IMG/VR virus record: IMGVR_UViG_3300044612_003086
Span: 113,892 to 133,891 of that record
DNA from: an uncultured virus (IMG/VR IMGVR_UViG_3300044612_003086)
Taxonomy: Duplodnaviria; Heunggongvirae; Uroviricota; Caudoviricetes
DNA: 20,000 bases
Direction: 5' to 3' (one strand)
Made by a program: the position numbers and the translations under genes. Positions 3 to 15,361 of the stretch are shown one piece after another. The notes beneath the pieces are model-generated. The model did no database searches and was not told the origin of the DNA. It was given only the letters and a program-made list of their open reading frames with translations. Numbering within the stretch: the stretch's first letter is position 1; every line of letters starts with the position of its first letter.

Positions 3-392
3 AACGCAGCAATTGCTTATAGCAAATTGAGTCTGTCTGGTTCGATTACGACAACAGATTTAGCTACTGGTGCAGCTCGCTCTGGGTTTAGGTCACCGAT
101 TGTTGCTCAGCAAGGTGCGACACACACAATTGCGGCTTCCGATGTTGGTGGTTTAGTGGTGCTTTCGTCTTGTACTTCGGTTGTCATACCAACCTCTGAT
201 GCAACATTTACAGTTGGGGACAGAATAGATTTTCTTCAAACAGGCACACAAGTAGTTACATTTAGCGCCACATCCCCACAAACCGTTGGCGGGTTTGACG
301 CTCAATTAAAACTTGGAGGACAGTTCGCAGTTGCAACACTTGTAAAGTATGCAGCAAATACATGGGTTCTAGTTGGAAATATAACGAGTTAA
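3..392 (+). CDS. Tail-fibre-like virion protein, C-terminal part (5' truncated by window edge)
   Basis: The frame is open from position 3 (NAAIAYSKLSLSGSITTTDL...), so the TTG at 27 is not the true start. The C-terminal domain (TIAASDVG...IDFLQTGTQVVTF...ATLVKYAANTWVLVGNITS) aligns by eye with the C-terminus of 17555..18331 and resembles a domain common at the end of phage fibre proteins. Confidence 0.7.
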   Translation, partial: NAAIAYSKLSLSGSITTTDLATGAARSGFRSPIVAQQGATHTIAASDVGGLVVLSSCTSVVIPTSDATFTVGDRIDFLQTGTQVVTFSATSPQTVGGFDAQLKLGGQFAVATLVKYAANTWVLVGNITS

Positions 393-393: not shown

Positions 394-1494
394 ATGATTC
401 CTGGAATAGTTGAGGCAGGTGGGGGCAGAATCCTCCCAACAACGTCTGACGATTTTAATCGCGCAAACAGCACAGACATTACTGCTGCTGGAAAAAAATG
501 GACAGAGACAAGTGGTGACTGGGCAATCACCAGTAACCAACTGACCACCTCAACCGCCGCAGCTAGCTACCCGATAGCCACATTGCGAACTAATACAAAA
601 AACGCAACAGTTAAAGTTGACAGAGCAAACGGGGATGGATGGGGTGCTGCATTCTGGGTGGTGGACCAAAACAACTGGTTTGCCGCCAACACGGAGATGA
701 CGCAATCAAGTGTTCAAAACCCTGCTACTAGCGGCAGCTATGAACAGCAAACATTTACCGGAAACACGTGTAGCGGTGGGAAAATATATAACGGCGACAG
801 TTCGTTCCCCCCGTTTGGTGGAACTTGCTACGACGTAGTTTGTATTAGTTACTCTGGGGGAACACCTGCAACGTATGAATATCGAACACCATCAGGACTG
901 TCTTGCTATCAGGATGGAATCCATTGTGGTGGTGGTTATGTTCTCTATGGCTATCAAGCCGGAGACGAATACCTCTGCGGTGGAACGTGTTGCTGCTCAC
1001 TCGTAATGACAGACCCAGGAACGCCAGGGACATGCAATGAATATCAAATTCAAAACTGTTGTATATATCTTGATGCAACTGACCCTGGTTGCCCTGGTGC
1101 CTGCAATGGACAAAGCCCAAGACCGCAGTACACGACCACGACGGTATACTACACAAATCCTGAAACAAGAACCTGGACATACTCGCAAAAAGCAATAATA
1201 AGAAAAGCCGTTGCTGGAACGGTTTCGATTGTTGCAAATACGAACACAGTCACATCTACCGAGACGGTTGCCGCGGCTGGGGCTGCTGGTAACCCAACAA
1301 GACCAACTTCACTAACCGTAACACTAGTCGGTGAAAGTATATCAATTTCAGCACCAGGGGCAGCAGGCGGAACAATAACAGGAAGCCATACCGCAACGGG
1401 GGCCAATAGAGGCAAAAAACATGGCGTTTCTATTGCTCCAGCGACAGTCTCTCAGTCAAATGCTGTCGACAACTTTGTGTATACTAAACCGTAA
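394..1494 (+). CDS. Putative virion/fibre-tip protein: lectin-like beta-sandwich with a Cys/Tyr-rich inserted domain
   Basis: 366 aa ORF starting 1 nt after the upstream stop. N-terminal SDDFNRAN...W....GDW motif and a C-terminal GKKHGV...VDNF strand typical of concanavalin/LamG-like sandwiches. Thr/Ala/Gly-rich. All 14 Cys fall in residues 126-237. Confidence 0.6.
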   Translation: MIPGIVEAGGGRILPTTSDDFNRANSTDITAAGKKWTETSGDWAITSNQLTTSTAAASYPIATLRTNTKNATVKVDRANGDGWGAAFWVVDQNNWFAANTEMTQSSVQNPATSGSYEQQTFTGNTCSGGKIYNGDSSFPPFGGTCYDVVCISYSGGTPATYEYRTPSGLSCYQDGIHCGGGYVLYGYQAGDEYLCGGTCCCSLVMTDPGTPGTCNEYQIQNCCIYLDATDPGCPGACNGQSPRPQYTTTTVYYTNPETRTWTYSQKAIIRKAVAGTVSIVANTNTVTSTETVAAAGAAGNPTRPTSLTVTLVGESISISAPGAAGGTITGSHTATGANRGKKHGVSIAPATVSQSNAVDNFVYTKP

Positions 1495-1656: not shown

Positions 1657-1989
1657 ATGGCTTTTACAATAATCACAACAACAAATGGTCCAGTGGTTAA
1701 GAGTGGTACGAATCACTACACGCTCCACGATATTGCTGCATGTATTGATATTGCTGAAACAAACGCAACTTTTGTTGACGAAATGGGCACTCACATTGCC
1801 AATGAGTTGATGGCCGCAGCCACGGAATGGACGGAAGCATTTGTCGGCGGACTGCAACCATCACAGAACAAAGTTGTTTACTACATGAACTCTGGGGCGC
1901 ATTTCAAAATGTTTGTCCAGCAGTATGATATGTACAAGCGGAACATGGAAAATCCACCGCCTGCGAGCGCCTCGGTTGTCGTTGAGTAA
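1657..1989 (+). CDS. Hypothetical protein (110 aa)
   Basis: ATG 4 nt after the previous stop; tiles the + strand block; no recognisable motif. Confidence 0.75.
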   Translation: MAFTIITTTNGPVVKSGTNHYTLHDIAACIDIAETNATFVDEMGTHIANELMAAATEWTEAFVGGLQPSQNKVVYYMNSGAHFKMFVQQYDMYKRNMENPPPASASVVVE

Positions 1990-3037
1990 AGCAGTCCAAT
2001 TTCCTCCATTTTTTGGGAGCACGCCAAAAATTGGTAAATCAGAAGTACTAGAAATTGATTCAATTAATGACGTTCATCTTGGCGGCGGTGTTGTCTGTTT
2101 CAGAAATGCATTTAATCCGAACAAAGAACTCATTATGCCATGGGCTGACAGAAATGCACAGCTGGCGCATGAGCAAAGATGGAAATATCACACCGACAGC
2201 TCCGGTCAGAAATATGCGGTAAACGAGGACGGCAATAAATTCTCAATTGAACAGATAGAGGAAGTTCCAATTCGTGTTCTTCAGCCGGTACAGCAAGGCA
2301 CCGAGCCGGAAGTTGTTGAGATATTCCAGAACTGGGAAGACCAAATTTATAAGTGCTTAATTAAGTACATTCACAGATTCCCATTTGCTCTCGGAACAAT
2401 ATGGTGGAGGAGCAGGGGGCACCTTCTGCGATACGACGAGGGTGATTATTTGGGAATCCATAACGATAATGACTCAAACTATAGGGCCACAAACGGTGAA
2501 AGATTTGTCCCCAAGGGGCAGGTGCAGATGCGTCAAGTTGTTGCCGTAATGGCATACATCAATGACTGCGTATCGAGCACATCCGAATTGGATGGAACAA
2601 ACTACATAGGCGGGGAGTTGTTTTTTCCATACCTTGATATTGAGCACCAAGCAAAATCCGGAGATATAGTAATTTTTCCTTGCAACTTTATGGCCACCCA
2701 TGGCGTCCACACTGTTACGCATGGGAAACGATACGGGTATCTAGAGTTCTTTTCACAAGGTTCATCACATGATGACGTCTTAATAAATGTGTCGGAGCCA
2801 GATGCTGTTGATGACTGGTGTCGTCCGCATTGGATTGACTCCCTGTATGACGATTACTCCCTCTATGCAAAACACTCAGATTACGGTCAATCGGATTTTG
2901 ATGAAGCAAGAACAAATCCTGTTTATCAGAATCGGGCGCTTGAGGGGGAAAACGGTTTATCTCGGCCGTATTACGCGAGCGATGTAATAAAAGAAACAGA
3001 AAACAGGGGTAAAGTTTACCCCGACCAACTTATATAA
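1982..3037 (+). CDS. Fe(II)/2-oxoglutarate-dependent oxygenase (paralog subfamily A)
   Basis: HxD (HNDND), YIND, GGELFFPY, distal His (ATHGV) and Arg (KRY). The ORF track starts at 1913; the in-frame TTG at 1982, overlapping the upstream stop by 8 nt, is the more plausible start. Confidence 0.85.
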   Translation: MSKAVQFPPFFGSTPKIGKSEVLEIDSINDVHLGGGVVCFRNAFNPNKELIMPWADRNAQLAHEQRWKYHTDSSGQKYAVNEDGNKFSIEQIEEVPIRVLQPVQQGTEPEVVEIFQNWEDQIYKCLIKYIHRFPFALGTIWWRSRGHLLRYDEGDYLGIHNDNDSNYRATNGERFVPKGQVQMRQVVAVMAYINDCVSSTSELDGTNYIGGELFFPYLDIEHQAKSGDIVIFPCNFMATHGVHTVTHGKRYGYLEFFSQGSSHDDVLINVSEPDAVDDWCRPHWIDSLYDDYSLYAKHSDYGQSDFDEARTNPVYQNRALEGENGLSRPYYASDVIKETENRGKVYPDQLI

Positions 3038-3058
3038 GCAGTCCCTGAAGCACCATAT

Positions 3059-3889
3059 TCATCTCGGTTCCTGCCAAGATGGATAGTCACCTCTTGGCTT
3101 ATCAAGTGAATTGTTCATTGTTAAGTGTTTTCCAAAAGTATTGATTCCATGTATGAATCCCAAATGCTCTGGAAATTTTAAATCGATGCATATGTCTCTC
3201 AGTTTTCCGTCGCGAATCTGTTCCCAAATATAAACCATCGTTTCAGAGCCAGTTCTTCCATCCACGTAGAATTTTTCTGCTATTAGGTTTAGCATTTCAT
3301 CTTCCCATTTGGGATTTTTTGGTGTTATTTTGTCTTGAAACAGATGCTCTTTTGGCGGCGACATACTGCCAGACGCAATGAGCCGATTTACGTATTTTGC
3401 TGGAGCGGCAGATACGTGGACATCAAAAAGCCCGCCCGACAACAATGCCGCTGCTTCCCGTGCTGATGGTCCTGAAAGAATCATGAGTCGATGCTTTTTA
3501 TCAGTTAAAGCTTCATCTTCAATGGGGTACCCCCTAATTGCTCCCTCACAGTAGTTATCTGTTAGGCCAGAAACGATGGTCCTCCACTGGTGTTCTTCCT
3601 CGTCTCCATTCAAAGAATTTAAGTCAATATACAAACCTTTGTATTTGTTTATTAATACATTTCTTGGTGTTTCCATGGCTGCATCATTTGTGCCTATGCA
3701 GATAATCGCCCCACACTCATCAGCAAGCTTCTCCAAAGTGAATAAATTATTTATTCCGCAATCCGATGCTCTGTGTATAGTCTCCATTGACCTATCCATC
3801 GATGCGAAAAATACAGAATGTCCTGCTAATTGCAATGACTTTGCGATTGTTGCACCCATTTTCCCGGGAGAATTAATTCCAATTTTCAT
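3059..3889 (-). CDS. NAD(P)-binding oxidoreductase, 6-phosphogluconate/3-hydroxyisobutyrate dehydrogenase-like N-terminal domain
   Basis: Rossmann start MKIGINSPGKMGATIAKSL...GHSVFFAS..RS, plus YIDLNS, EGAIRGYP and ILSGPSA, resembling the NAD_binding_2/DUF1932-type family. GAGG upstream of the ATG. Confidence 0.75.
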   Translation of the reverse strand: MKIGINSPGKMGATIAKSLQLAGHSVFFASMDRSMETIHRASDCGINNLFTLEKLADECGAIICIGTNDAAMETPRNVLINKYKGLYIDLNSLNGDEEEHQWRTIVSGLTDNYCEGAIRGYPIEDEALTDKKHRLMILSGPSAREAAALLSGGLFDVHVSAAPAKYVNRLIASGSMSPPKEHLFQDKITPKNPKWEDEMLNLIAEKFYVDGRTGSETMVYIWEQIRDGKLRDICIDLKFPEHLGFIHGINTFGKHLTMNNSLDKPRGDYPSWQEPR

Positions 3890-3898
3890 TGATACGCC

Positions 3899-4675
3899 TC
3901 ACTTTATTGGACCAACAGGAACAAACTGTTGGACCGAATTTGCTGAATGACTAGTAATAAAATCAAGATGATACGAAAAGTTCTGCAATTCTTGTCTTTT
4001 ATGTTCTGCCGGTGGGCTTATATCGAGAACGCCGTGGCAGAACCAGGAAAGATAAGCAAATCTCTCTCCCGTTTCTATTGGTGTTATCTCATGGCAACCA
4101 GAAAAGTTAGAAGGGTACACAACGATTGAACCAAACTTGGGGAATACGGTTATGCCCCATGGGCGGAAACTTAGATTTCCACCTGTGTATTTATCGTTTA
4201 GGAAAATGCTACACGTAAGAGTATTTGCTATTGGTGCCAATGAGATTGGAGTCAAACCATCATCTGCGTATGGGAGATTTGCGTCGGAATGTGGTCCTAT
4301 CATTTGTCCCGGAAGATACCTAATTACATGACCCCTGGTCCGCCATTTTACGGCACCTGCGGCAGATGGGAATATCTCCAAGTACTTACTGACACAGTTG
4401 GTTCCGGAGTCCTCCAAATCGCTCAAGGTTTGAAAATCTTTTTTTTCTATTCCCAAATGATTTACATTTAAGTATCTATGTGGGGCAATCTTTGCTTGTT
4501 CTAAATTGTGGTTATACCCACCAGAATTTTTTAAATTCTCATTACCCAAATTTGAGTAACCCTCATGGTTGGTGGACAGGAGGAGGTTTTCAAGATACTT
4601 ATCGACATCTTGTTGTGTTGACTTTATTGCATTGTCAAACTGAACAATTCCATTTCCTAGATGCGTTATGTTCAT
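3899..4675 (-). CDS. Fe(II)/2OG oxygenase (paralog subfamily A)
   Basis: HSD, FLNDKYTGGNLSF, YPSNFSGCHEI, ERF; shared WRTRGHVIRY motif. Confidence 0.88.
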   Translation of the reverse strand: MNITHLGNGIVQFDNAIKSTQQDVDKYLENLLLSTNHEGYSNLGNENLKNSGGYNHNLEQAKIAPHRYLNVNHLGIEKKDFQTLSDLEDSGTNCVSKYLEIFPSAAGAVKWRTRGHVIRYLPGQMIGPHSDANLPYADDGLTPISLAPIANTLTCSIFLNDKYTGGNLSFRPWGITVFPKFGSIVVYPSNFSGCHEITPIETGERFAYLSWFCHGVLDISPPAEHKRQELQNFSYHLDFITSHSANSVQQFVPVGPIK

Positions 4676-5583
4676 TAAAAACCGTCCGAAACCAGAGACA
4701 TGGCATAGAAGTGTTTATCTGGCCCACAATTTTGTATGTATTCTCTAAAGTCTTTGCGCAAGTTGGGTAGGTAAACGTTTGTAGAAACCTTTGCAATTTC
4801 TGGTTCCTTAACAGGGTCTGCGATGTGCTCGTGATATTCGCTATTTGGGCTTCCGTGTGAATACCAACCCAAATATGAATATCTCTCCCCCCTGGAAACT
4901 GGAAGCACTTCATGTGATGCTATGTAATTTGATGGGAACATTAGTATGTCCCCCTTTCGTGGTTTGTAATTTATATTTAGTTCGTTAAAGAAATGGTGTC
5001 CTCCAGCAAATGAATTTACAGCATCATCGCCAGATTCATCGCAATCGTTAATGTAGACAATGCAGGATAGTGTATTTCTTGTTGCTAGCTGGTCGGATGG
5101 GTGTTCGTATCCATAGACGTAGTCGGCGCTTGTGTCTGAATGGACGCCAAGGTATTGGCGATTACCCACAACTCCAGATGGTGGAGATGAATACCTAACG
5201 ATATGCCCCTTAACCTTCCACCAAATATTTTTGTAAGAAAGGGGATATCTGAGCATGTATTTGAGCAAATACCTATCTTTCGAGTCCTCCCAAAACTCAA
5301 GCATTTCCCTAAACTTATCTGAACATTGCTGATGGGCGGACGAACACCTACTTGGCATCGATGCAAATGTGTCGTAATCAAAAATGTAGCCGCTCATATT
5401 TACTAGCGCTTTTTCGCCAGTTTCGGGATGAATTGTTTCGGTGTACATAGCGGAGGCGTCTCTGTCGACAAGCTCCCTACAGGAATTAATAGCAAATTCC
5501 CAGTCAAAGTCGATAGCCGACGGAAACAGACAAACACCAGCACCAAGTTCCATCATTTCTACGTCATTAAACTTATTAACCAT
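4675..5583 (-). CDS. Fe(II)/2OG oxygenase (paralog subfamily A)
   Basis: HSD, YIND, FPSNYIASHEV, ERYSYLGW; WWKVKGHIVRY. Start moved from 5661 to ATG 5583 (or 5589) to avoid an 86-nt overlap and to match the paralog N-termini. Confidence 0.88.
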   Translation of the reverse strand: MVNKFNDVEMMELGAGVCLFPSAIDFDWEFAINSCRELVDRDASAMYTETIHPETGEKALVNMSGYIFDYDTFASMPSRCSSAHQQCSDKFREMLEFWEDSKDRYLLKYMLRYPLSYKNIWWKVKGHIVRYSSPPSGVVGNRQYLGVHSDTSADYVYGYEHPSDQLATRNTLSCIVYINDCDESGDDAVNSFAGGHHFFNELNINYKPRKGDILMFPSNYIASHEVLPVSRGERYSYLGWYSHGSPNSEYHEHIADPVKEPEIAKVSTNVYLPNLRKDFREYIQNCGPDKHFYAMSLVSDGF

Positions 5584-6409
5584 GGTCATTGCTCCGAGAC
5601 CTGTGCGCTGCTGCTCTTGCTGGTGGCATTCCGGAATACTTGCCGTTGATGTATTCATCATAGTCTTCAGTGATTGAGCTCAACCAAACTTGTCCACCTG
5701 TGTCTGAAATCTCCAACTGTGGGTTTATCCCTTTTTCTTGAGATTCTGAGCCCTGGGCAAACCAGGCAAGGTACGTGAGTCTTTCTCCACTTGTGATAGT
5801 GGATATCTCATGGGCGGCTACGTAATTAGCCGGAAACAAAAGTATGTTTCCTTTTTGCGGTTTGATTGCAACGTCTGCATACGGAAATAACATTTCACCG
5901 CCACAAAACGCTCCTGGCGCTGGGGTTTCCGACCAGTCGTTAATGAAAACTATTGCACTCAGAACGTTTCTAGTTGCGTGTTCCTTGCTGGGCATTTTTC
6001 CATATCTGTAGTTCACATCATTATCCGAATGAAGCCCCAGTGAACCACCGGTTGAATAAGAGAGGATATGTCCAGAAGTTCTCCACCACAGGCAGCTAAG
6101 GATTGCTGGAAACATTTCAATGTACTGCAAAAGACAGGAATATATCGCTGGCTCAAATTCGTTGTATATTTCGCTACCCAACCCTTGTAGTCTGAGTGGA
6201 GCTTTTGCCATGTCCTGCAGGCTATAAATAAAACCGCCCTGATTTAGCGCGTGGATTGGATTTCCGTTTTCATCTAGGACAACGGTAAAATTTTCTTCTA
6301 TTGCCTTTTGCTTCAACTTCTCTATCTTGTCTGAAAATTTACTGAATTCGATGTTCGCAGCGGCCACAAACTCGATTATTCCATGACCATGATTTATCAC
6401 GGAGCTCAT
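5576..6409 (-). CDS. Fe(II)/2OG oxygenase (paralog subfamily A)
   Basis: HSDND, FIND, GGEMLFPY, FPANYVAAHEI, ERLTYLAW; WWRTSGHILSY. Confidence 0.88.
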   Translation of the reverse strand: MSSVINHGHGIIEFVAAANIEFSKFSDKIEKLKQKAIEENFTVVLDENGNPIHALNQGGFIYSLQDMAKAPLRLQGLGSEIYNEFEPAIYSCLLQYIEMFPAILSCLWWRTSGHILSYSTGGSLGLHSDNDVNYRYGKMPSKEHATRNVLSAIVFINDWSETPAPGAFCGGEMLFPYADVAIKPQKGNILLFPANYVAAHEISTITSGERLTYLAWFAQGSESQEKGINPQLEISDTGGQVWLSSITEDYDEYINGKYSGMPPARAAAHRSRSNDHG

Positions 6410-7020
6410 AGCAGGGACCTTATGGCTTGTTTTATTGAATTATCCTCCCCGAATAAAGCCTGCTCCGATATCGGTGATTCCGCCCAATTAAATCGACCAA
6501 CATAAACGCCTTCTCGTGATGTTAAGAATTTTTCCCAATTGTTCGGAACCCTCATTGCAACTTCCCCCGCTCTATTTCTTCCAGCAGCCGCAGCGGCACT
6601 CAAGTCGGCCATGCTGTCGTTAAAATTTCTTATTAGCTCTCCATTTAGGAATGAGTAAACGTCATGCCTATTTTGCCCGTTAACGTCTATTTTTTCTGCT
6701 ATCGGAAATGTAACGTAGGGATAATTTTTTTTTATATTTTCAAAAATTTCCAAATTGTCGCCATTCTCCATGTTCCCAAATTGGTTGCATGGGTAACCGA
6801 CGACGCTAAAACCGCTATCACAAAATTCTTCATGAAGTTTTTGCAATTCCCAAAAATTTTTAGCTGTTCTTGCATAAGACCATAGACGACTGCACTTTGG
6901 CGAGTATCCGGTCTTTGATACAACGTTTACATGGAGGAGCACTTTACCCCTTAACTGTCCAAGCAAATTTGGACAGCCATCCAAAGAGCTTATTTCTATA
7001 TCAAAAATCGATTTACTCAT
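6406..7020 (-). CDS. Glutathione peroxidase-fold protein with atypical active site
   Basis: SIFDIEISSLDG, LRGKVLLHVNVVSK, GYPCNQFG, TFPIAEKIDVNG and NWEKFL match GPx/BtuE motifs. The canonical NVASKCG reads NVVSKTG. Likely start is ATG 7020 rather than 7062. Confidence 0.85.
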   Translation of the reverse strand: MSKSIFDIEISSLDGCPNLLGQLRGKVLLHVNVVSKTGYSPKCSRLWSYARTAKNFWELQKLHEEFCDSGFSVVGYPCNQFGNMENGDNLEIFENIKKNYPYVTFPIAEKIDVNGQNRHDVYSFLNGELIRNFNDSMADLSAAAAAGRNRAGEVAMRVPNNWEKFLTSREGVYVGRFNWAESPISEQALFGEDNSIKQAIRSLL

Positions 7021-7312
7021 CCTCTGACACCGTACATGAGATTTTGGTATTAAGAAATTCACCTATTCTTAGAAAACCGCTTCCAGATTCCGTATCAATA
7101 TCGATTTGTACCGTCGTAATAATTGGTGCCTCTAGTTCAAATCTGCTACTTATACTCTTTCCGTTATTGCCGATGACCACATTTTCTCCAGGCACCACGT
7201 GGGTTCCCCTGCTATGGTTGATTGCAATTGAGCCATCTTCGGAAAGAGTTAATCTGCAAACTTCTTCCCCAAATGGTGTATCAACGGAGATATCCCAAGA
7301 CCCCAAAATCAT
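7013..7312 (-). CDS. Hypothetical small beta-rich protein (99 aa)
   Basis: Tiles the operon; starts GSWDISVDTPFG; function not recognised. Confidence 0.7.
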   Translation of the reverse strand: MILGSWDISVDTPFGEEVCRLTLSEDGSIAINHSRGTHVVPGENVVIGNNGKSISSRFELEAPIITTVQIDIDTESGSGFLRIGEFLNTKISCTVSEDE

Positions 7313-7319
7313 GGCATCG

Positions 7320-7928
7320 TTACTGTGAATTGCGGCCTCTTGCCCAAGGACTCATGTCCGGGTATACCGTTGTATTTGGAATTCTTGGGTGGAGGTTAAA
7401 GCTTACGCAAACTCTAGGTTTGTCTTCATTGTGTCTTTCTGTCTGATGGGGAACAAATGAGTTGAAAAATACAATCTTCCCTGTTTCTGGTTCTATTTTT
7501 GTAACCATGTTGTATGCGTTCATGGCTTCTCCGTAAAGGCAAAGTCGGCATCCTGGACCAACAGCATCGATGTAAATAACACCAGACCAGTACTCGCTTG
7601 GAAAAAGATGCGCATTCGAACTATGTCTATGGTAAGGAGTTGATTGTCCTTTTTCTAAAATTCCACACCATATGTCTGCAAGGACAACGTCGCCAAGTAC
7701 TTCGTTGGCCCTATGCTCAATCATGTCACGCAAACCCTGACACTCTTTTGTGTTTGGCAGAACGTAATCAACCCCACTCTGCACGTCAACAAATTCTTTT
7801 GCATCTGGGAAATCTGGATGTATTCTAGATTCCAAAATTTGAGACGCTATTACCGAATAATCAATTCCTTTAATGAATGATTCATGGGCTCTGATTGGAA
7901 CTAACCAAATCCAGCCATTGTTATTCAT
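7320..7928 (-). CDS. Putative 2OG-Fe(II) oxygenase, HxH type (TIGR02466/2OG-FeII_Oxy_5-like)
   Basis: YHRH, WSGVIYI, PETGKIVFFNSFVPHQT, RVCVSFN. ATG at 7928 preferred over TTG 7934. Confidence 0.85.
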   Translation of the reverse strand: MNNNGWIWLVPIRAHESFIKGIDYSVIASQILESRIHPDFPDAKEFVDVQSGVDYVLPNTKECQGLRDMIEHRANEVLGDVVLADIWCGILEKGQSTPYHRHSSNAHLFPSEYWSGVIYIDAVGPGCRLCLYGEAMNAYNMVTKIEPETGKIVFFNSFVPHQTERHNEDKPRVCVSFNLHPRIPNTTVYPDMSPWARGRNSQ

Positions 7929-8592
7929 GCGCAAAATCTCCTGTTGCTAGCCCCATTGGGGGAACATCTTTTGTCCATACATTAATGACCATTACTTGCC
8001 TTAGTCTAGACCCTGCTGGTGTCGTGTTATGTACCACATGGCCGGAATCAAATACTACGAGCCTGTTCCCCTTGTACCTAATCCTCTCTCTTTCATTTGG
8101 TGGAGAAGACGCGTATGCGGCAAGTACAGATGGCTCCAAGGCCAACGTTGAGCCATCCTCCAACCTTGAGTTGTGGATTTCGAGAAAGCCACCGTCATCA
8201 TTATCGCATCCATACCAAACACAGCCAATCCGCGGTCCGTAAAACGTACCTGTCAACAGATATGCAAATGTATCCTCATCTACATGCTCCCCTATGAACT
8301 GACCTGGTTCGAATGTCCTGGTCCAGTATTCGAAACCAATGACCTCTTCAATCGGAAAAGGTAATCTCTTTTTCCAGATTTCTTTTATAACTAAATGCTT
8401 GAGGCTTCTTGGTTGGCTTTTCCCCCATCCATCCCAAAACATATAGGACGATAGCTCCTTGGAATCCCCGTGATACGAGTTGAGACTTGTCGCTATTTGT
8501 TGACCATCTTCATATTTCGACGCGAAAAAAGTTTCATCGCGCAAGACTTGTTCGTACAATTCTGCCGGAACGCAGTTATCTTCAACGAACAT
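7921..8592 (-). CDS. Fe(II)/2OG oxygenase-like protein
   Basis: GFEYWTR, HVDED, GGFLEI, NRLVVFD...HVVH, RQVMVINVW: HxD...H...R double-stranded beta-helix pattern. Confidence 0.8.
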   Translation of the reverse strand: MFVEDNCVPAELYEQVLRDETFFASKYEDGQQIATSLNSYHGDSKELSSYMFWDGWGKSQPRSLKHLVIKEIWKKRLPFPIEEVIGFEYWTRTFEPGQFIGEHVDEDTFAYLLTGTFYGPRIGCVWYGCDNDDGGFLEIHNSRLEDGSTLALEPSVLAAYASSPPNERERIRYKGNRLVVFDSGHVVHNTTPAGSRLRQVMVINVWTKDVPPMGLATGDFAHE

Positions 8593-8595
8593 AAT

Positions 8596-9312
8596 TTATA
8601 AAAACTTTTCATTCGGAAATTTACTTCTGAGGTAAGCAAGGTCAAAGTCGAACATCAAAACAAGACGTCTTGATGTACCATCATGTCTTACCGAGTGCTC
8701 AAACGGCGGGCCATCCTTGAAAGCAAGAATCTTGCCTTCTTCCCAACTTTTTGTTTCGTCGCCTACGGTTATTCTACAGTCCTTATCGTTTATTAGGCAC
8801 AGGTGACTTCTCATTAGTTGGTCAGAACCAAAATGCGGATTTACTACCGCCCCAGGATGCATTATGCTGAACATTCCGCCAGAACATTGGTTGCTGTCAG
8901 CGAACTCAGCAACTATCGAGTTAAACGTTTTGAATTGTTTCCTAACGTGCTCTAGGTGTGTTTCTAGATTGGCTTTTGTTTTCCACCTCAGTATTTTTTT
9001 TACCATTTCCGTATTTGCCCACTGCTTGGGGTCACTTGCTGGTGGAGTTCCGGCAACCGCTACGTCCCAGGAGCCTGTATAAAGCTTTCGCCTATCCCCT
9101 TCCGGCAAGTCTGATTGTGGATTTTCGTACCTTGCGTGAGAGAGGGTAACATTTGGGGCAGGCAGAGAAACCTTGTTATCGGAGTATGGGTGTTGAGTGT
9201 TTTCGTAAACGATGTACTCGTCACGTATCTTTTCCCAGTTTTTCTCAATCTGCACACACACGGGCAAGGACCTGATTAATTCATCCCAGAACCTTGGCTG
9301 CAAGTCACTCAT
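8596..9312 (-). CDS. Aspartyl/asparaginyl beta-hydroxylase family protein (AspH/LpxO-like)
   Basis: NWEKIRDE, FSIMHPGAVVNPHFG, RSHLCL, VGDETKSWEEGKILAF.D...EHSV.H.G...RLVLMFD match the Asp_Arg_Hydrox motif series. Confidence 0.88.
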   Translation of the reverse strand: MSDLQPRFWDELIRSLPVCVQIEKNWEKIRDEYIVYENTQHPYSDNKVSLPAPNVTLSHARYENPQSDLPEGDRRKLYTGSWDVAVAGTPPASDPKQWANTEMVKKILRWKTKANLETHLEHVRKQFKTFNSIVAEFADSNQCSGGMFSIMHPGAVVNPHFGSDQLMRSHLCLINDKDCRITVGDETKSWEEGKILAFKDGPPFEHSVRHDGTSRRLVLMFDFDLAYLRSKFPNEKFL

Positions 9313-9348
9313 TTTTTGATACTAACACGTTTCACGTGCTTAAAGATT
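9313..9348 (-). promoter_or_regulatory. Candidate extended -10 promoter (TGTTAGTAT) for a leaderless transcript
   Basis: Minus strand reads ...ACG-TGTTAGTAT-CAAAAA-ATG: TGnTAnnnT lies 6 nt before the ATG at 9312, with no Shine-Dalgarno, in one of the few intergenic gaps. It overlaps a short inverted repeat (CACGT-GAA-ACGTG). Confidence 0.4.
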
Positions 9349-10074
9349 TTAATTTTTAATGAAAACCGTTTGTCCGTATCCGTTGGCCAGGTGGTATGTG
9401 TGCCCGTCGCTGTTTTTAAGAATTTCATGCATGCTTGAATATGGGTGAATATGAAAGTCTTCCCTGTAAAGCTTCGTATTGTGATTGGACATGCCAATCA
9501 GTAGAACACCACCAGGATTCAGTGATTCAACCAAATCTTTAACAAGTTTGTCATTGCCCACAAGAGACCAACCCCAGCAAATGGCCATGTCAAATGTGTT
9601 TTCAGATATTTCATTTGGCTCGACGACGCAGTATTCGTTAAGCTCATTGATGCCCGGGCCAGGTAATTCTAGTTCCCCGGCAATATGCTCCAAAAAGAAC
9701 AATGAGTGATTATTCACAAAACACAAGTCTGTGTCTGGAAATTTTGCTTTATACATACTCCAAAGTAGTATTTCTGCATCGACGAATAACAAGGAATTTG
9801 GCTTCTTTGTCATTAGAACTTGTTCTTGAGCGATGTATTCAGCTTCGATTATCGCTGCCCATTCTGGTTCCATTCCCTTAATGAGTTCATAAATCCAGTA
9901 TGTGTTCAGTCCTGCTACAGCAACATTTCTCTTGTCAAGATTGATTGATGAAAGCCAGCTTGATACCGCGCTTCCTGCATCGCTCATCAACTGAGCAAAA
10001 TCAATATTGTTGCTAAATTGGGTCTTTGATGACTGCTGCGTCACCAGAGCGCTCCTAATTGCAAAATTATCCAT
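9349..10074 (-). CDS. Class I SAM-methyltransferase-like protein (degenerate motif I)
   Basis: C-terminal half has ENTFDMAIC and LVESLNPGGVLLI (motifs II/III); no glycine-rich motif I visible. Confidence 0.55.
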   Translation of the reverse strand: MDNFAIRSALVTQQSSKTQFSNNIDFAQLMSDAGSAVSSWLSSINLDKRNVAVAGLNTYWIYELIKGMEPEWAAIIEAEYIAQEQVLMTKKPNSLLFVDAEILLWSMYKAKFPDTDLCFVNNHSLFFLEHIAGELELPGPGINELNEYCVVEPNEISENTFDMAICWGWSLVGNDKLVKDLVESLNPGGVLLIGMSNHNTKLYREDFHIHPYSSMHEILKNSDGHTYHLANGYGQTVFIKN

Positions 10075-10375
10075 TTTGGATTACCGCCAATACAACTTGT
10101 CTCTGGAACCAGAGATGCCTTGCCCTATTTGTTAGTAGAAAATTTCTTTTACGCGTTAAGTCGTAGTATGGTTTTCCCTGTTGGTTAAATGTCGAACTGC
10201 TCATGTGAAATGACTGTCTCAGACTAAAAAAAATGTCGTCGAACTCGACTTCGGATATTTGATTGAACTCCATACCGGCTATGTACATTATCTTTGCGAG
10301 TTCGCGCTCTATTTCCTGCAAGTGCGAAGCAGCATCGAAGAGAGGCTCTTCACCGTGTTGTCTAGTCTGTTTCAT
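10067..10375 (-). CDS. Hypothetical helical protein (102 aa)
   Basis: Tiles the operon; weak similarity to the small proteins at 10681-11382 (IERELAKIMYIAGM). Confidence 0.7.
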   Translation of the reverse strand: MKQTRQHGEEPLFDAASHLQEIERELAKIMYIAGMEFNQISEVEFDDIFFSLRQSFHMSSSTFNQQGKPYYDLTRKRNFLLTNRARHLWFQRQVVLAVIQNG

Positions 10376-10670
10376 CTGTAAATTCCTCGGTCCAGTCGTC
10401 GTTTATATCAATCGGGTCTTGTCCAAATTGGGACATTGGGTCATTCCCCTGTAGGCGCTCACAAAATAATGCAGCGCCGTCCGGAAGAACGAAAGAAAAA
10501 GTTTTTGGGTTCCAGTGCAAAACATTTTCTGTTCTATCTGGATTGTCCATTGGGTTGGTTATGTCTGGTTCTGATTTTGACTGCTCAGGACAGATGTTGT
10601 ATTGCCCTGTAGCGATGGCAGCGTCCACCAGCGGAACATTCCTTTTGATTGGCGGTAAATTCAGCTCCAC
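10362..10670 (-). CDS. Hypothetical acidic protein (102 aa)
   Basis: GTG start 10 nt after the upstream stop; tiles the operon. Confidence 0.7.
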   Translation of the reverse strand: MELNLPPIKRNVPLVDAAIATGQYNICPEQSKSEPDITNPMDNPDRTENVLHWNPKTFSFVLPDGAALFCERLQGNDPMSQFGQDPIDINDDWTEEFTDETD

Positions 10671-10680
10671 AATGAAACCA

Positions 10681-10896
10681 CTACGAGAGTCGCTGCAGAG
10701 ACTCTATTTGTCTAATCAGATTGTTGAAAGACTTGTATCTTGTTGCGTCTGATTCTGGAGTCTCTGGGTTTTCAAAATTCTCATCAAGTGTTTCTGGATT
10801 GACGCCAAGAGAAAGGGCAAGTACGTATATCGAGTATTCAAGATATTGCTTTGCTTCTTGTCGTGCTTGTTGTTTTTGTTCATCCGAAAGCGCCAT
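10681..10896 (-). CDS. Small helical hypothetical protein (71 aa)
   Basis: Clear AGGAG RBS upstream; LALSLGVNPETL motif. Confidence 0.8.
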   Translation of the reverse strand: MALSDEQKQQARQEAKQYLEYSIYVLALSLGVNPETLDENFENPETPESDATRYKSFNNLIRQIESLQRLS

Positions 10897-10908
10897 GTTG
10901 ATTTTCTC

Positions 10909-11154
10909 CTATTTAAGTGTGTCCATTGTCAGATTCGATGCTTGTCTAAAGTGGCCGACTTGGCGCAATAACTTTTCTTTGCGAGTTGGTCTATCAGAAT
11001 CACGAACATTAAGGTTTTCCATAACTTCATCTTCGGATATCTCAAGAGGGTCTATGGCGCTCAGAAGCAATGTATGAATCTGGGCGTTAATCAGCTGCTG
11101 ATGCAGTCTAAACCCAGCAGCAATCTTTGCCTGTTTGCTAATCCCAAATTGCAT
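10909..11154 (-). CDS. Small helical hypothetical protein (81 aa)
   Basis: Tiles the operon; LLLSAIDPLEI motif. Confidence 0.7.
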   Translation of the reverse strand: MQFGISKQAKIAAGFRLHQQLINAQIHTLLLSAIDPLEISEDEVMENLNVRDSDRPTRKEKLLRQVGHFRQASNLTMDTLK

Positions 11155-11160
11155 TTTTGC

Positions 11161-11382
11161 CTACGAGTTAAGTTCATTCAGCTTGCGCTTAATCAGTTTT
11201 ACTGCATTTATTGACTCATTGAGGATTGGGACCTCGAAATTGTGCTCAGCCTCAAGAATAAATGTGTCTGGGTCTATTCCGTGCCCAATCAGTCTTTCAA
11301 ACAACACCTTTTCGGCGTCCCTAAGGCTGCGCTCAAATATCCCGCGCTTCTCGTTATTTGTCAATTGAGACGAAAATTCCAT
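11161..11382 (-). CDS. Small helical hypothetical protein (73 aa)
   Basis: GGAG 7 nt before ATG 11382 (alternative GTG 11385); LIGHGIDPDTF motif. Confidence 0.75.
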   Translation of the reverse strand: MEFSSQLTNNEKRGIFERSLRDAEKVLFERLIGHGIDPDTFILEAEHNFEVPILNESINAVKLIKRKLNELNS

Positions 11383-11413
11383 CACCTATCTCCGATTGTG
11401 TTGTTTGCTTTGA

Positions 11414-11430
11414 ATCATACCACCATTATA
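11414..11430 (-). promoter_or_regulatory. Candidate internal sigma70-type -10 elements (TATAAT and extended TGGTATGAT)
   Basis: Minus strand reads TATAAT-GG-TGGTATGAT at the start of the ~40-nt gap upstream of the small-protein run; no convincing -35. Confidence 0.35.
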
Positions 11431-12133
11431 CTATGGGCTCCGAAAGTGCTGGCAGCCCAGCAAATGTTGGGCCTATTTGATTTCCGTCCGCGTCAAGACC
11501 TGTCTTAATGCCCTTTGTCCAAGTCCATGGGCGTTCGATATTGTTCTGCGACTTGAGTTGACCATATTTTGACCTTGCCTCCACCAGCTCCTTATCGTCC
11601 CATAGTGTCACTACCTCGAATTCTGCGTCTTTAATGATTTGAGGCGAGTAGATGTTAAAAAAACACAAAGGCGAACCGGCTGGGAAAACTACTTCCTGAT
11701 TTTCTTTTGTTATCTTCCAGTTCATTTGAACTTCGTCAGGCCACCACCACGAAGGAATCGTTGCTGACAGCCCGACAGCGCCGTCTATAAAGTAATTTGG
11801 AGAGCCCGAAATCCAAGTCTCATACCCTGGCTCGGTGTTTATAATCCATCCCATGTGTAGGGAAATGGTTCCTATTATTGATGATGTGGCTTGCTTTCTG
11901 CCGCTTTTAGTAAATTCGCCTGCAAGTATTTCGGGGGGAGTGTTTCCGCCGGACCATTTAATTACAAGGTCCTCCTCCATCTGCACTTCCCATCCCATTA
12001 CATTCGCCACGGAGACTGGCATGCATTGATAAGCGTGTTTTTTATGTGTCTCGTCCATCCAGTCTCTCTTTAATCTTGACTGAACTATCCGAGGTGGATT
12101 TGGGTCTGTTCTTTTTAAAACTATCTTGCTCAT
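11426..12133 (-). CDS. DUF6065-like protein
   Basis: RDWMD...HAYQCMPVSVANVMGW, SGSPNYFIDG...L...I..WW and MNWKIT...VVFPAGSPLC match the DUF6065 pattern as I recall it. Confidence 0.75.
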   Translation of the reverse strand: MSKIVLKRTDPNPPRIVQSRLKRDWMDETHKKHAYQCMPVSVANVMGWEVQMEEDLVIKWSGGNTPPEILAGEFTKSGRKQATSSIIGTISLHMGWIINTEPGYETWISGSPNYFIDGAVGLSATIPSWWWPDEVQMNWKITKENQEVVFPAGSPLCFFNIYSPQIIKDAEFEVVTLWDDKELVEARSKYGQLKSQNNIERPWTWTKGIKTGLDADGNQIGPTFAGLPALSEPIV

Positions 12134-12849
12134 TTCTTTACCGACATATCAATACTTGTTCCAGACGAAACCCCAGCCCCATATGTTGCCTTTGAGCCGT
12201 CAATATTCTCCCCGTAGCCATGTTTGTGAGTTCTGTCGTTGTAGTCAAACATGGTCACTGCCGCATACTTTGTTCCAGAAACAACAGGTCGCGACGCGTG
12301 GGCATACGTAAACGTAGATGGGAACATTACGTTGTCCCCAGCGGCAAACTTCACGTTTAGGTCAAGATATGGGAACCAAAGCTCACCCCCCTCGTAGTCG
12401 TCATTTATGTATATGACTGACGAAACTGTACAGTTATAAGAAAATCCATGGTCTGTGTGAACGTTGAAGTGCTGACCAGGCTTATATCGCACATAATTTA
12501 TGGCTTCACGATAATCCATTTTGATGTTAAATCTTTGCTGATAGTCGTTAAGACATGCCGTTAATATTTCAACGGTATCTTCGTATACTGAGCGAAGTCC
12601 GGAAAATTCTTGTGGCAAGTTTGCTATATGGGCATCTCCCAATTTACAATCAACGCAGTCTCTGTATTCTGGCATTTTTTGTTGGTCGCCAACGAGTGCA
12701 TCCATCCACATATACGGCGCGGTTTCACTGGACCCAATCGCCTCTTCAATTCTCTCCGGTATGTTCAATTCCCGTGGGAGCGCATTGCGATAGACGATTA
12801 TTGCCAATCTCGGGTCTCCAATAAACTCAACCTCGATATTTCTTACCAT
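12130..12849 (-). CDS. Prolyl-4-hydroxylase-like Fe(II)/2OG oxygenase (2OG-FeII_Oxy_3)
   Basis: VRYKPGQHFNVHTD, YINDDYEGGELWFP, FPSTFTYAHAS, GTKY; AGGAG RBS. Confidence 0.9.
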   Translation of the reverse strand: MVRNIEVEFIGDPRLAIIVYRNALPRELNIPERIEEAIGSSETAPYMWMDALVGDQQKMPEYRDCVDCKLGDAHIANLPQEFSGLRSVYEDTVEILTACLNDYQQRFNIKMDYREAINYVRYKPGQHFNVHTDHGFSYNCTVSSVIYINDDYEGGELWFPYLDLNVKFAAGDNVMFPSTFTYAHASRPVVSGTKYAAVTMFDYNDRTHKHGYGENIDGSKATYGAGVSSGTSIDMSVKK

Positions 12850-13381
12850 ATTGGTTGCTCCTTTTTTGTTTATGTTTCATAGAAAACCACATTGGGCATG
12901 CCCACCTATCCCCTCCGTATACATTATCTACATAATGAGCAAATTCAATACCGCCACCATAAATTACAACCCGGCCTGGGGATGGCTTCACGGTATTGCC
13001 CGTATCGGCAAAAACAAGTTCCCCCCCATTGAATTCTTGGTTCAAATACAGAACCGCAGACACATCAAAGTCCTCACACCCAAGCTTTGGTGAGCCATCC
13101 AAATTCTGCCTGTCTGCGTGCAGTGTTGGGACATGAAGTCCAGATTTGCTGACAAAAATTCCGGGCATTCTATGCTCAAGTTCAATGTCATATTTTTTCT
13201 CTGCGGCTGCCATGACAACCCATGATGCAAATATCAATGACTCGGCGGCTTCAAAATCTTCTGTCAGTAGTCTGTCAATTCCAATACTTTCGCCAATTTT
13301 TACTGCCGCCGACAATATTTTGGAAATAGTCGTATCTTCAAAAAGCGAATCTATGATATGTACTTTGTCTACTCTATTCAT
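12827..13381 (-). CDS. Prolyl-hydroxylase-like Fe(II)/2OG oxygenase
   Basis: LHAD, SAVLYLNQEFNGGELVF, HYV, GDRW. ATG 13381 (8-nt overlap) preferred over 13429. Confidence 0.88.
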   Translation of the reverse strand: MNRVDKVHIIDSLFEDTTISKILSAAVKIGESIGIDRLLTEDFEAAESLIFASWVVMAAAEKKYDIELEHRMPGIFVSKSGLHVPTLHADRQNLDGSPKLGCEDFDVSAVLYLNQEFNGGELVFADTGNTVKPSPGRVVIYGGGIEFAHYVDNVYGGDRWACPMWFSMKHKQKRSNQYGKKYRG

Positions 13382-14009
13382 CCACAACAGTATAGAACGA
13401 TGGGGTCGTATATCTCTCCCCAGATTCAACCATGCTTACCCCGTGTAAGTACCCAACATCACCAGGATGTATCACTGCCAAGCCGGGTTTTGGTCTAACG
13501 GTAATCCCGTGCTGTGGGTAATACAAATCGCCACCCTCAAAGTCGTCATTGTAATAGAACAATGAATTGATGTCGTAATCCGTGAAGGCGTTTGGTCTTC
13601 CGTCATTTAGTTGCTTATCGGCATGGGGGCGCTGCTCTATGCCTGCCCGCCATTTCATTATCACCGGAGGGCGCACTGAAACAGAAACCTGAAAAAGCTC
13701 TTCGATGAGGTTCTTCATTTTGTAGATGTATTTATCAACAATTTCATAAACCTCCGAGTTCAGCTCCTTTAAAATTTCAGAACTGCACTGCCTGTCGTTC
13801 CAGTATTCTGCGTTATACAAACATGTTCCATCTTCCGCATAAACGCTTTCGGCTGTGTTGTTCCATTTATTTATTGTTGGGCAAAATTTCTGAACTAAGA
13901 GCAAGTCTTCTAGTTCGATAAAATTTTCAATTATGTGGATGTTCTCTGGTCCGCTGCCAAAATGCCCGGGTTTTATCTTCCAGGGTGAATCGATATCAAT
14001 CATTTCCAT
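13374..14009 (-). CDS. Prolyl-hydroxylase-like Fe(II)/2OG oxygenase
   Basis: PHAD, YYNDDFEGGDLYYP, YLHGV, GERYT. Start at 14009 or 14003. Confidence 0.9.
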   Translation of the reverse strand: MEMIDIDSPWKIKPGHFGSGPENIHIIENFIELEDLLLVQKFCPTINKWNNTAESVYAEDGTCLYNAEYWNDRQCSSEILKELNSEVYEIVDKYIYKMKNLIEELFQVSVSVRPPVIMKWRAGIEQRPHADKQLNDGRPNAFTDYDINSLFYYNDDFEGGDLYYPQHGITVRPKPGLAVIHPGDVGYLHGVSMVESGERYTTPSFYTVVDE

Positions 14010-14784
14010 GTGATTTCCTTTGGGACGTTATATGTTCATACAACATAACATCCAATTTGCTTCTTTCAAGTATTTCCTTTTTTTGTGACGGGCTCGGTTT
14101 TATTCCAGCTCGGACCGATGAGTTCATTTTTTCTAAACCCAACCCTACAAATTCAACATTGAATTTATCCTTAAATTGATAAGTCAAATATTTTTCTACG
14201 GCCATTCGCTCGTTCATTTCAAAAATTGTAATGTCTTTAATTCTGTCTATTAGTTCTTTTTCTCCAGTAGGTAAATCGGACTCGACAAACCATGCACCAT
14301 TAGGCTGAATACTAACCCCTGGTGATTCATCCCCAACATCTAAGACTGCATTGATTTCAACCATCCTGCACGTAAGCATCTTGGTTTGCAAATTTCCGTC
14401 AGATGAAAACAATTTACATCCAAAAATTGTTTCGTATTTTCCGTCTAAGAACTTGTCAAGAATTTCGTTTGTAAATTCCCTTCGGGACGACATGGCCCTG
14501 TATGCAGCAATGCTGACAAAATGGTCTACCGGCTCCCTTATAACGGAGAACGTCTCCAGGCTGCTGTCGTTGTGTAAAATTGGATTGATTGCAAAATGAC
14601 CACTAATTGTGGGCCATTCGCTCATTGTTATGTGATTATATGAAAATTCAAAAATCCCAGGGGTTTGGTTTTCGTATTTATCAAGACCCTTTTTGTATCT
14701 ATCCAGTTCAAACGATTTATGTATTGCGTAAAGTATTCCGGTCCCAGATGTGCGCGGTATATGCAGATGATAAAGATTACCCAT
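13996..14784 (-). CDS. Sulfotransferase family protein (Sulfotransfer_2-like)
   Basis: 5'-PSB-like HLHIPRTSGT at the N-terminus, SGHF, 3'-PB-like IREPVDHFVS and C-terminal LDVMLYE. Confidence 0.8.
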   Translation of the reverse strand: MGNLYHLHIPRTSGTGILYAIHKSFELDRYKKGLDKYENQTPGIFEFSYNHITMSEWPTISGHFAINPILHNDSSLETFSVIREPVDHFVSIAAYRAMSSRREFTNEILDKFLDGKYETIFGCKLFSSDGNLQTKMLTCRMVEINAVLDVGDESPGVSIQPNGAWFVESDLPTGEKELIDRIKDITIFEMNERMAVEKYLTYQFKDKFNVEFVGLGLEKMNSSVRAGIKPSPSQKKEILERSKLDVMLYEHITSQRKSHGND

Positions 14785-15361
14785 TTTGGGCCATCTCTAT
14801 TAATTTCCTGTGTTTTTCTGGAACCCAGAAGTGGGGAGATGTATATCTAACTCCTTCTATCACTTGCCTTACGCCATGGAGGTAATAACTGCTGGATGGA
14901 AAAAATATCAAAGAACCCTCTTTTGGTTTTAGTTCAAGTCCGTGTTGCGGAAAATATATTTCCCCACCTGTGTAATTCTGATTTATATAAATTACGGAAC
15001 CGTAATCAACTATGTATGTTCCGTTTGGCGTGCCGTCTAGGTCTTCGCCATCCGCGTGAAGACCTTGACTCTCCCCAGAGTCCCATCTTCGTATGCCCGG
15101 TCTTGCTGTCTCTAGGATTCTCCCAAATTTAAACTCAATCATTTTCTTTACGTCATCAACGTATGATTGCATTATTTCATAGAGTTCGGGGTTATCCTTC
15201 TGCATTTTTTTGTATGTGGATATCTTGTCATTACCGCCCTTTGACCATGACTCCCACTCATTGATTGAATAGCAATAGCGATATGCAAGTTCGACGTGTT
15301 CGGGCGTCATAAAATTTTCTACTACAACTATGTTTGATTTGTCGGCAGCTGCAGCTCTCAT
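14777..15361 (-). CDS. Prolyl-hydroxylase-like Fe(II)/2OG oxygenase
   Basis: LHAD, YINQNYTGGEIYFPQH, YLHGV, GVRYTSP; close paralog of 13374..14009. Confidence 0.9.
   Translation of the reverse strand: MRAAAADKSNIVVVENFMTPEHVELAYRYCYSINEWESWSKGGNDKISTYKKMQKDNPELYEIMQSYVDDVKKMIEFKFGRILETARPGIRRWDSGESQGLHADGEDLDGTPNGTYIVDYGSVIYINQNYTGGEIYFPQHGLELKPKEGSLIFFPSSSYYLHGVRQVIEGVRYTSPHFWVPEKHRKLIEMAQNG

Follow-up and report, generated by a model that had tools for sequence, protein, structure and literature searches.

How a phage protein comes to carry fourteen cysteines in one segment and none elsewhere, and what that segment might do, is the question raised by an open reading frame (ORF) at positions 394–1494 of the DNA analysed here. 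The window, a stretch of 20,000 nucleotides (nt), is the final 20 kb of a 133,891-bp IMG/VR virus record (IMGVR_UViG_3300044612_003086, estimated to be 89% complete) from an uncultured member of the Caudoviricetes. An earlier note, made from the letters alone, had proposed that the cysteine-rich segment is a disulfide-bonded or metal-bound knob projecting from a lectin-like virion protein, and a candidate hypervariable receptor-binding module. We find that the product of this ORF is predicted to be a phage lectin-fold receptor-binding protein with a new variation on that theme, in which a module, probably braced by cystines, interrupts the lectin sandwich and varies more than the rest of the protein among close relatives. 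The central idea of the earlier note is largely upheld.

The cysteine cluster and the fold that it interrupts

The ORF starts with an ATG one base past the stop of the upstream ORF, and ratios of nonsynonymous to synonymous substitution (dN/dS) of 0.03–0.29 across all pairs of its alleles show that it is a real coding gene. A script count places its cysteines at residues 126, 145, 150, 171, 178, 195, 199, 200, 201, 214, 222, 223, 233 and 237, and thus all within residues 126–237 (nt 769–1104, the codons starting at 769–1102) and none outside; the CCC and CC runs that had been remarked upon lie at residues 199–201 and 222–223. This span of 112 residues also holds 20 glycines and 12 tyrosines. 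The probability that 14 cysteines placed at random among 366 positions would all fall inside one given span of 112 residues is about 6e-8, and cysteine makes up 12.5% of its residues, compared with 0.64% across 348 ORFs that come from related loci and lie outside the family. The cluster is a real feature and not one of chance. The Thr/Gln/Tyr-rich flanks are likewise present as described (TQSSVQNPATSGSYEQQTF at residues 103–121 and QYTTTTVYYTNPETRTWTYSQ at residues 245–265), as are GGTPAT (residues 155–160) and PGTPGT (208–213), with six cysteines between them. Judged from the sequence by eye, the N-terminus (MIPGIVEAGGGRIL) is without a hydrophobic signal-like stretch.

An AlphaFold2 model built from a 34-sequence alignment has a mean predicted local distance difference test score (pLDDT) of 84.7 and a predicted template modelling score of 0.59. 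Per-residue pLDDT is mostly above 83 in residues 20–160 and 210–366 and falls in residues 161–210; this least confidently modelled stretch is also where the protein varies most. Exhaustive comparison of this model with 48,161 PDB chains, using VIA-align, gave the carbohydrate-binding module (CBM) family CBM66 (4b1m, Z 16.8, root-mean-square deviation 2.7 Å, 151 residues aligned), the lectin domain of galactocerebrosidase (3zr5, Z 16.4), the C-terminal receptor-binding domain of TM4 gp23 (9n6a, Z 15.2), the baseplate of mycobacteriophage Douge (8zdo, Z 14.4) and the CBM2 of the phage J-1 Dit (5ly8, Z 11.1), with legume lectins at Z of about 11 (peanut lectin, 1ciw, Z 11.6). These matches cover model residues ~12–366 but align just 151–182 of them, and it therefore appears that both ends of the chain build the sandwich, with the middle lying outside it. 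On this model the protein belongs to the concanavalin A-like (ConA-like) lectin/glucanase fold, a sandwich of two sheets. In BFVD the model matched Caudovirales proteins that come from uncultured phages and lack characterisation (E 1e-17 to 5e-11), as well as actinophage proteins of the minor tail and tail fibre kinds (E 6e-5 to 9e-4), and the ESM Atlas led to viral hypothetical clusters and to the ConA-like SO2946-like_C (score 0.90), and to nothing else; with the insert alone it returned no usable match. Foldseek comparison of the full model with the PDB gave no matches at E ≤ 0.001, and its top rows, in which TM is ~0.1 and the chains are viral fusion proteins and pore toxins, we regard as artefacts of an elongated beta model.

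Family members with nearly no insert are informative about where the module sits. P0091 (259 residues, no cysteines) and P0037 (255 residues, four cysteines), are in keeping with an insertion site. The model thus bears out the proposal that a lectin-type sandwich carries an insertion, both flanks being predicted to form one ConA-like domain, and the structure prediction does not show the separate conventional domain that would have told against it. In the model, the shape of the attachment is not the one long hairpin that had been envisaged. Assignment of secondary structure with DSSP gives strands at residues 94–109 and 112–125, joined by an NPAT turn, and at 243–255 and 258–273, joined by an NPET turn, such that each flank of the module is a strand-turn-strand unit with two residues between its strands; GGTPAT and PGTPGT coincide with the turns of a pair of hairpins that are predicted within the module (145–154/160–164 and 202–207/213–224). 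Most simply, the model can be read as an antiparallel meander of four strands, with the module in place of the turn between strands two and three and the conserved NPAT and NPET turns at the opposite end; strands 112–125 and 243–255 may pair beneath the module like a ribbon.

The module varies between lineages

In the 17 sequences that share 70% or more identity with the query, pairs are on average 0.56 identical in the module as against 0.84–0.88 in most of the sandwich (Table 1), in agreement with the expectation of a variable insert on a conserved scaffold; the segment is neither invariant nor part of a known family. Column entropy tells the same story, reaching 0.9–1.75 bits over most of residues 131–220 (0.54 in residues 141–150) and staying at 0.06–0.64 bits in residues 1–110 and 251–366. 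Of 87 inserted residues in the close alignment, 83 lie in residues 121–240 (75 of them in 131–220) and the other four at the C-terminus. By the Nei-Gojobori method, applied to six distinct DNA alleles and the six pairs with unsaturated dS, dN/dS is 0.14–0.29 in residues 131–220 and 0.03–0.18 in the scaffold. The term hypervariable is therefore apt for differences between lineages and not for these modest ratios, nor for the allele as seen in lake water, where assembled contigs are nearly identical.

We asked whether a diversity-generating retroelement might lie behind this variation. The 133.9-kb record (89% complete) has no match to the reverse transcriptase family RVT_1, which was matched in control genomes, and no second copy of the DNA at nt 694–1190 apart from a 14-nt chance match; because neither a reverse transcriptase nor a template copy is found there, such an element is unlikely.

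Cysteines change in pairs

Cysteine numbers in the family are mostly even. Total counts are even in 31 of the 34 aligned homologs and in 66 of 76 representatives that are at most 50% identical, whose counts range from 0 to 31 (binomial p = 1.5e-11, a guide only, as the sequences are related and their independence is overstated). When the representatives are restricted to those of at most 460 residues, 64 of 71 have even counts, and 896 of their 923 cysteines (97%) are inside the insert. In non-family ORFs of the same loci counts are even in 37 of 67 with at least four cysteines, and in 10 of 12 with at least eight, the latter a small set that includes other cysteine-rich phage proteins. Parity has outlasted very many changes of cysteine number.

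Closer relatives show how this may come about. Among the 22 closest sequences C172 occurs in seven, invariably together with C185, and C149 and C220 occur in an identical set of six; C150 is shifted to position 153 in two. Given the relatedness of the sequences these paired gains represent few events (at least two for 149/220), and both the 172+185 and the 149+220 patterns have the appearance expected of a gained disulfide. The even counts and paired gains favour intramolecular disulfides over metal binding, and we consider disulfides, about seven in the query, much more likely than metal sites. Even and pairwise-conserved cysteines are also what a disulfide-rich domain of the extracellular type would have. 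Of the two states left open by the earlier note, disulfide-bonded or metal-bound, the pattern across homologs thus sides with the first.

If the disulfides are real, how does a protein assembled in the cytoplasm acquire about seven of them? The remark that such cysteine density is unusual in that setting needs qualifying, since there is precedent for disulfides in the tails of phages. In the freshwater cyanophage Pam3 they have been described within the baseplate wedge and between wedge and fibre, on evidence from cryo-electron microscopy, mass spectrometry and treatment with dithiothreitol (DTT) (PMC9942802).

A small cysteine-dense ORF of 156 residues with 14 cysteines also lies beside tail-fibre genes on a distant viral contig (L017:3365–3835, plus strand), which suggests that cysteine-rich tail-associated proteins extend beyond the lectin family.

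A family of uncultured phages

The 366-residue protein has no Pfam match at E ≤ 1 and no PHROG family match, the scaffolds of 16 relatives are not covered by any Pfam family, and a PDB profile search with the family alignment gave no matches at E ≤ 1. The family is nonetheless common in uncultured phages, though uncurated. A word-indexed search of large metagenome-derived collections found 38 relatives, of which 33 were aligned with the query (P0004, P0006, P0007, P0010 and P0012 being omitted as near-duplicates); an exhaustive HMMER scan recovered, at E ≤ 0.001, the representatives of 129 clusters formed at 50% identity, none of them informatively named; and a scan of viral contigs gave 108 relatives, from which 80 loci were retained, with 75 evaluable for the upstream and 75 for the downstream neighbour. 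We found no description of the family, or of a cysteine-dense variable insertion in a phage lectin, in open-access full-text papers or bioRxiv.

The N-terminal ~110 and C-terminal ~115 residues can be aligned throughout the 34 sequences, and the middle varies in length and sequence and is cysteine-rich in nearly all. When profiles of the two scaffold parts were scanned over 165 family sequences, both parts were present in 112, of which 76 are the representatives at most 50% identical used above. In these 76 the stretch between the scaffold profiles is 42–269 residues long, and its length is correlated with cysteine count (rho 0.69). In distant members the module is swapped for unrelated cysteine-rich sequence.

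A 12-residue motif closed by cysteines, CPxGGxLxGxxC, occurs in 29 of the 165 family proteins in up to three copies, replacing the module of the window; its carriers include P0022–P0038, P0043 and P0065, and the query has no copies. The source label 'TraN' of cluster member P0181 is probably a mislabel arising from cysteine-rich composition, and P0038 has no match to the Pfam TraN family.

Fibre, lectin and partner genes

On the same strand, the genes upstream code for members of phrog_52 (tail protein) and phrog_5026 (baseplate), for two proteins without assignment and for a tail fibre. This fibre, of 340 residues in full (L082:9262–10284), has a conserved C-terminal domain of ~115 residues. 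The upstream neighbour matches a tail-fibre or minor-tail PHROG in nine of 11 diverse loci (L002, L010, L014, L016, L017, L027, L042, L071 and L078), the remaining two (L024 and L031) giving no such match. A profile search finds that the fibre C-terminal domain ends at most 250 nt upstream of the lectin gene in 54 of the 75 evaluable loci. On the other side, a homolog of a protein of 110 residues follows on the same strand, within 700 nt, in 62 of 75 loci. Together these two associations describe a three-gene cassette of fibre, lectin with module, and small protein. The 110-residue partner, which has no Pfam, PHROG or PDB match, is a candidate assembly helper. A complex prediction of three fibre C-terminal domains with the 366-residue protein gave scores of 0.16, 0.39 and 0.08 against a mark of 0.32, which counts neither way.

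Discussion

Taking these observations together, we lean, with slightly more confidence than doubt, towards the view that the lectin protein is a tail-fibre-associated adhesin, that its cystine-braced module is a lineage-specific host-contact surface, and that the downstream protein is an assembly helper. The product of ORF 394–1494 would be a receptor-binding protein, and the phage a myovirus-like inhabitant of lake water that has not been cultured. The first and last thirds of the chain would co-fold as the ConA-like sandwich, with a module of ~117 residues sitting between two long strands and held by about seven intramolecular disulfides, formed either when the particle meets oxidising water or with intracellular help. 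A cystine framework of this kind would permit the loops to change in sequence and length while the fold persists, and with loops free to change, lineages would therefore differ mainly in the module, the surface that would contact the host envelope. The lectin protein, whose gene belongs to the same operon as that of the fibre, is probably seated on the conserved fibre C-terminal domain, and the small downstream protein probably aids its assembly.

Several observations weigh against this interpretation. Presence in the particle is something that we infer from gene position and fold; 21 of the 75 loci have no fibre domain upstream. Model confidence is low at the centre of the module (pLDDT 56–74), and the module alone (residues 118–252, with a 6-row alignment) reaches an AlphaFold2 pLDDT of 44.3, too low for its fold to be searched. 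Odd cysteine counts are found in 10 of the 76 representatives. Module dN/dS is below 1, and relaxed constraint, as opposed to selection for new specificities, could account for the faster change of the module. In contigs from four lake runs, 0–1 of 2000 bases depart from the window; such contigs conceal rare variants, and the window may itself derive from some of these runs. Finally, the query and the distant members P0029 and P0043 gave no tblastn matches among 50,697 records of isolated phages, and thus no family member is present in an isolated phage among those records.

Other explanations have to be set beside the adhesin. The cysteine module could be mainly structural, with intermolecular disulfides to the fibre, to the baseplate or among its own copies, leaving any binding to the lectin body, which by itself resembles carbohydrate-binding modules. 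Such bonds have precedent in the cysteine-rich regions of the Pam3 wedge that bridge to cysteines of the fibres, the fibres being set free by DTT (PMC9942802), and an extensive disulfide network is reported for the phage Milano tail (PMC10811340). Even counts and paired gains, however, suit intramolecular pairs better; the fibre fragment in the window has a single cysteine in 129 residues and the downstream protein has none; and one would expect conservation of a docking surface, whereas the module is the least conserved part. We therefore regard the structural role as unlikely, though deserving of some weight. The one-base gap behind the fibre gene, and the retention of this gene pair in 54 of 75 loci, also bring to mind an assembly chaperone that does not remain in the finished particle or is held there loosely at most. 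A chaperone for fibre assembly is encoded by the gene that follows that of the fibre in P2, Mu and T4. The lectin protein is, however, unlike the known small chaperones in size, lectin fold, cysteine density and rapid change, and its fold is like that of receptor-binding domains of tail proteins; the role is better suited to the small, cysteine-free, conserved protein encoded next in 62 of 75 loci, and that the lectin protein is itself the chaperone seems to us distinctly improbable.

Were the cysteines free of disulfides, they might bind zinc, copper, cadmium or an iron-sulphur cluster in the manner of a metallothionein or an array of zinc knuckles. The CCC and CC runs, two CxxxC spacings, a reducing cytoplasm and the lack of a signal peptide, as read from the sequence, are all compatible with this. 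The query has no CxxC, though, and its cysteine span just one histidine; totals such as 14, 18 and 22 are divisible by two but not by four; cysteines are gained in twos, not in fours, with parity kept in 66 of 76 representatives; and there is no match to a Pfam metal-binding family. Metal binding strikes us as very improbable.

In its presumed way of working the protein comes closest to adhesins of the gp38 type and to the receptor-binding domains, lectin-like in fold, that actinophage tail proteins carry. With the ConA-like phage domains (9n6a, 8zdo and 5ly8) and CBM66 (4b1m) it shares the same two-sheet sandwich in the predicted model, and with the phage domains it shares a location in tail or baseplate gene clusters, with which the actinophage minor tail matches in BFVD agree. 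It differs from them in having no detectable sequence relation, curated lectin and CBM families (CBM66 included) giving no significant profile match in Pfam or in the PDB profile search; in the ~117-residue cysteine-rich insertion that splits the sandwich, to which those structures leave nothing aligned; and in being a separate small protein, whereas the ConA-like phage domains form the C-terminal ends of long tail proteins. The gp38-type adhesins of Salmonella phage S16 and of T2 are encoded by a separate gene immediately after the long tail fibre gene, and they have a conserved framework with variable segments. The gene arrangement is the same here, with the one-base gap and the fibre domain upstream in most loci, but Pfam, PHROG and PDB fold searches gave no sequence or fold match to gp38-type proteins. 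A gp38 has a polyglycine-type lattice and no cystine framework, whereas the lectin protein is predicted to be a sandwich bearing a module of disulfide type; as the module is rich in glycine (20 of 112) and its centre poorly modelled, a local lattice is possible within it. The lattice of S16 gp38 is one of glycine-rich motifs (GRM; PMC9942802).

The likeness to bovine ultralong antibody loops that the earlier note drew is a partial one. The bovine complementarity-determining region H3 (CDR-H3) is described as a disulfide-bonded mini-domain borne on a beta-sandwich, with loops and number of cysteine pairs that vary (PMC10523490), and a cystine-braced variable mini-domain is what the phage module also appears to be. 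Topology and the source of diversity differ: the bovine knob stands on one ribbon from an immunoglobulin fold and varies somatically, whereas the phage module, about twice its size and with a predicted seven or so bonds, would stand between two strand-turn-strand flanks on a lectin scaffold and varies by inheritance between lineages. Mtd of Bordetella phage BPP-1 and the other lectin-fold tail proteins diversified by retroelements, tentaclins among them (PMC10743442), likewise display a variable receptor-binding surface on a lectin-type fold; that fold is of the C-type, where ours is predicted to be ConA-like, and variation here includes insertions, deletions and cysteine pairs. The reverse transcriptase and template repeat of such systems are not found in the record. 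The putative disulfides invite comparison with Pam3, a freshwater phage whose assembly is cytoplasmic and whose tail-fibre and baseplate proteins carry such bonds. In Pam3 these are a few inter-subunit bonds in conserved cysteine-rich loops (PMC9942802), whereas the cystine module here is dense, variable and apparently intramolecular.

Receptor-binding proteins set the host choice of phages, and few are known from uncultured phages of fresh water and the sea. A hitherto unannotated family represented by 129 clusters would provide a recognisable marker gene for the host-recognition module, and a cystine-braced lectin insertion whose cysteine pairs change in step would be a new structural route to variability; a conserved scaffold with so tolerant an insertion site could also interest protein engineers. 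A broader proposal, which we offer tentatively and hold to be rather doubtful, is that aquatic phages have a hitherto undescribed three-gene host-recognition cassette, consisting of a fibre with a C-terminal dock, the lectin and a small helper, and that it displays a natural 'cystine-knob library' with paired turnover of cysteines. If this were true, one insertion site would accept modules of 42–269 residues with 0–31 cysteines while their loops diversify, making it the equivalent, in phages, of display scaffolds based on knottins or bovine knobs, and disulfides would be needed on a protein from a reducing, photosynthetic host.

Other features of the window

The coordinates of the gene, its parts and its immediate neighbours are collected in Table 1.

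Table 1. Features of the fibre-lectin-partner region, with window positions in nt unless marked as residues (aa).
Feature	Position	Strand	Remarks
3′ part of upstream tail-fibre gene	3–392	+	PHROG tail-fibre and minor-tail families
Gene for 366-aa predicted ConA-like lectin-fold protein with inserted cysteine-rich module	394–1494	+	Last large gene of the baseplate/tail-fibre operon
N-terminal half of predicted sandwich, aa 1–125	394–768	+	pLDDT 85–96; identity in 17 close relatives given below
Long strand pair, aa 94–109/112–125	673–768	+	Within N-terminal half
Inserted cysteine-rich module, aa 126–242, 14 Cys	769–1119	+	pLDDT 77–88 at both ends, 56–74 in aa 161–210
Most variable stretch, aa 131–220	784–1053	+	75 of 87 inserted residues; column entropy; dN/dS
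C-terminal half of predicted sandwich, aa 243–366	1120–1491	+	pLDDT 83–96; pairwise identity 0.83–0.84
Long strand pair, aa 243–255/258–273	1120–1212	+	Within C-terminal half
Conserved partner gene, 110 aa, no Cys	1657–1989	+	Homolog ≤700 nt downstream, same strand, in 62/75 loci
Sandwich, identity 0.88	aa 12–93		
Identity 0.76	aa 94–125		
Module, identity 0.56	aa 126–237		
Identity 0.83	aa 238–273		
Identity 0.84	aa 274–366		

The source of the DNA is consistent with a freshwater phage. Positions 1–2000 are carried by 24 listed sequencing runs, all of them freshwater or lake-water metagenomes and none an RNA run, and the allele recurs in lake samples, with contigs of four runs matching at 1999–2000 of 2000 positions; some of the runs may themselves be the source of the window. 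The single DNA match to an isolated phage is a short one, to Synechococcus phage S-H9-2 (76% over 156 nt), and the virion gene at 18334–19998 on the minus strand has at most 49% protein identity to Synechococcus T4-like cyanophages, S-H9-1, S-RSM4 and S-PM2 among them; a relation to the cyanomyoviruses is likely, but distant.

A second protein that ends in the same fibre C-terminal domain (PHROG E 1e-20 to 1e-22) is encoded at 17555–18355 on the minus strand, and it is followed by a 413-residue fibronectin-type-III protein (16307–17551, minus strand) in place of a lectin; these two may constitute a second fibre-plus-tip pair.

From 1913 to 15361, mostly on the minus strand, there is an island of about eleven genes for 2-oxoglutarate (2OG)-Fe(II) oxygenases, which also contains an Asp/Asn beta-hydroxylase-like gene (8596–9312, PF05118, E 2.6e-24) and a DUF6065 gene (11426–12133). 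Several distant loci, L042 and L071 among them, also have related oxygenases in the vicinity of the family gene. We considered the cysteine module as an obvious target of the neighbouring Asp/Asn beta-hydroxylase and set the idea aside, as CNEYQIQNCC does not, by eye, fit the animal epidermal growth factor hydroxylation consensus. Two genes of the glutathione-peroxidase family (PF00255) are also present on the minus strand, at 6406–7062 (E 3.6e-26) and 15372–16310 (E 1.3e-6), and outside near-identical contigs homologs were seen in L010 and L011 only. It is a matter of speculation whether they are linked to oxidative folding of the cysteine-rich protein; the redox and oxygenase genes of the window, namely the two glutathione-peroxidase-like, the one beta-hydroxylase-like and the roughly eleven 2OG genes, might help to fold or modify the lectin.

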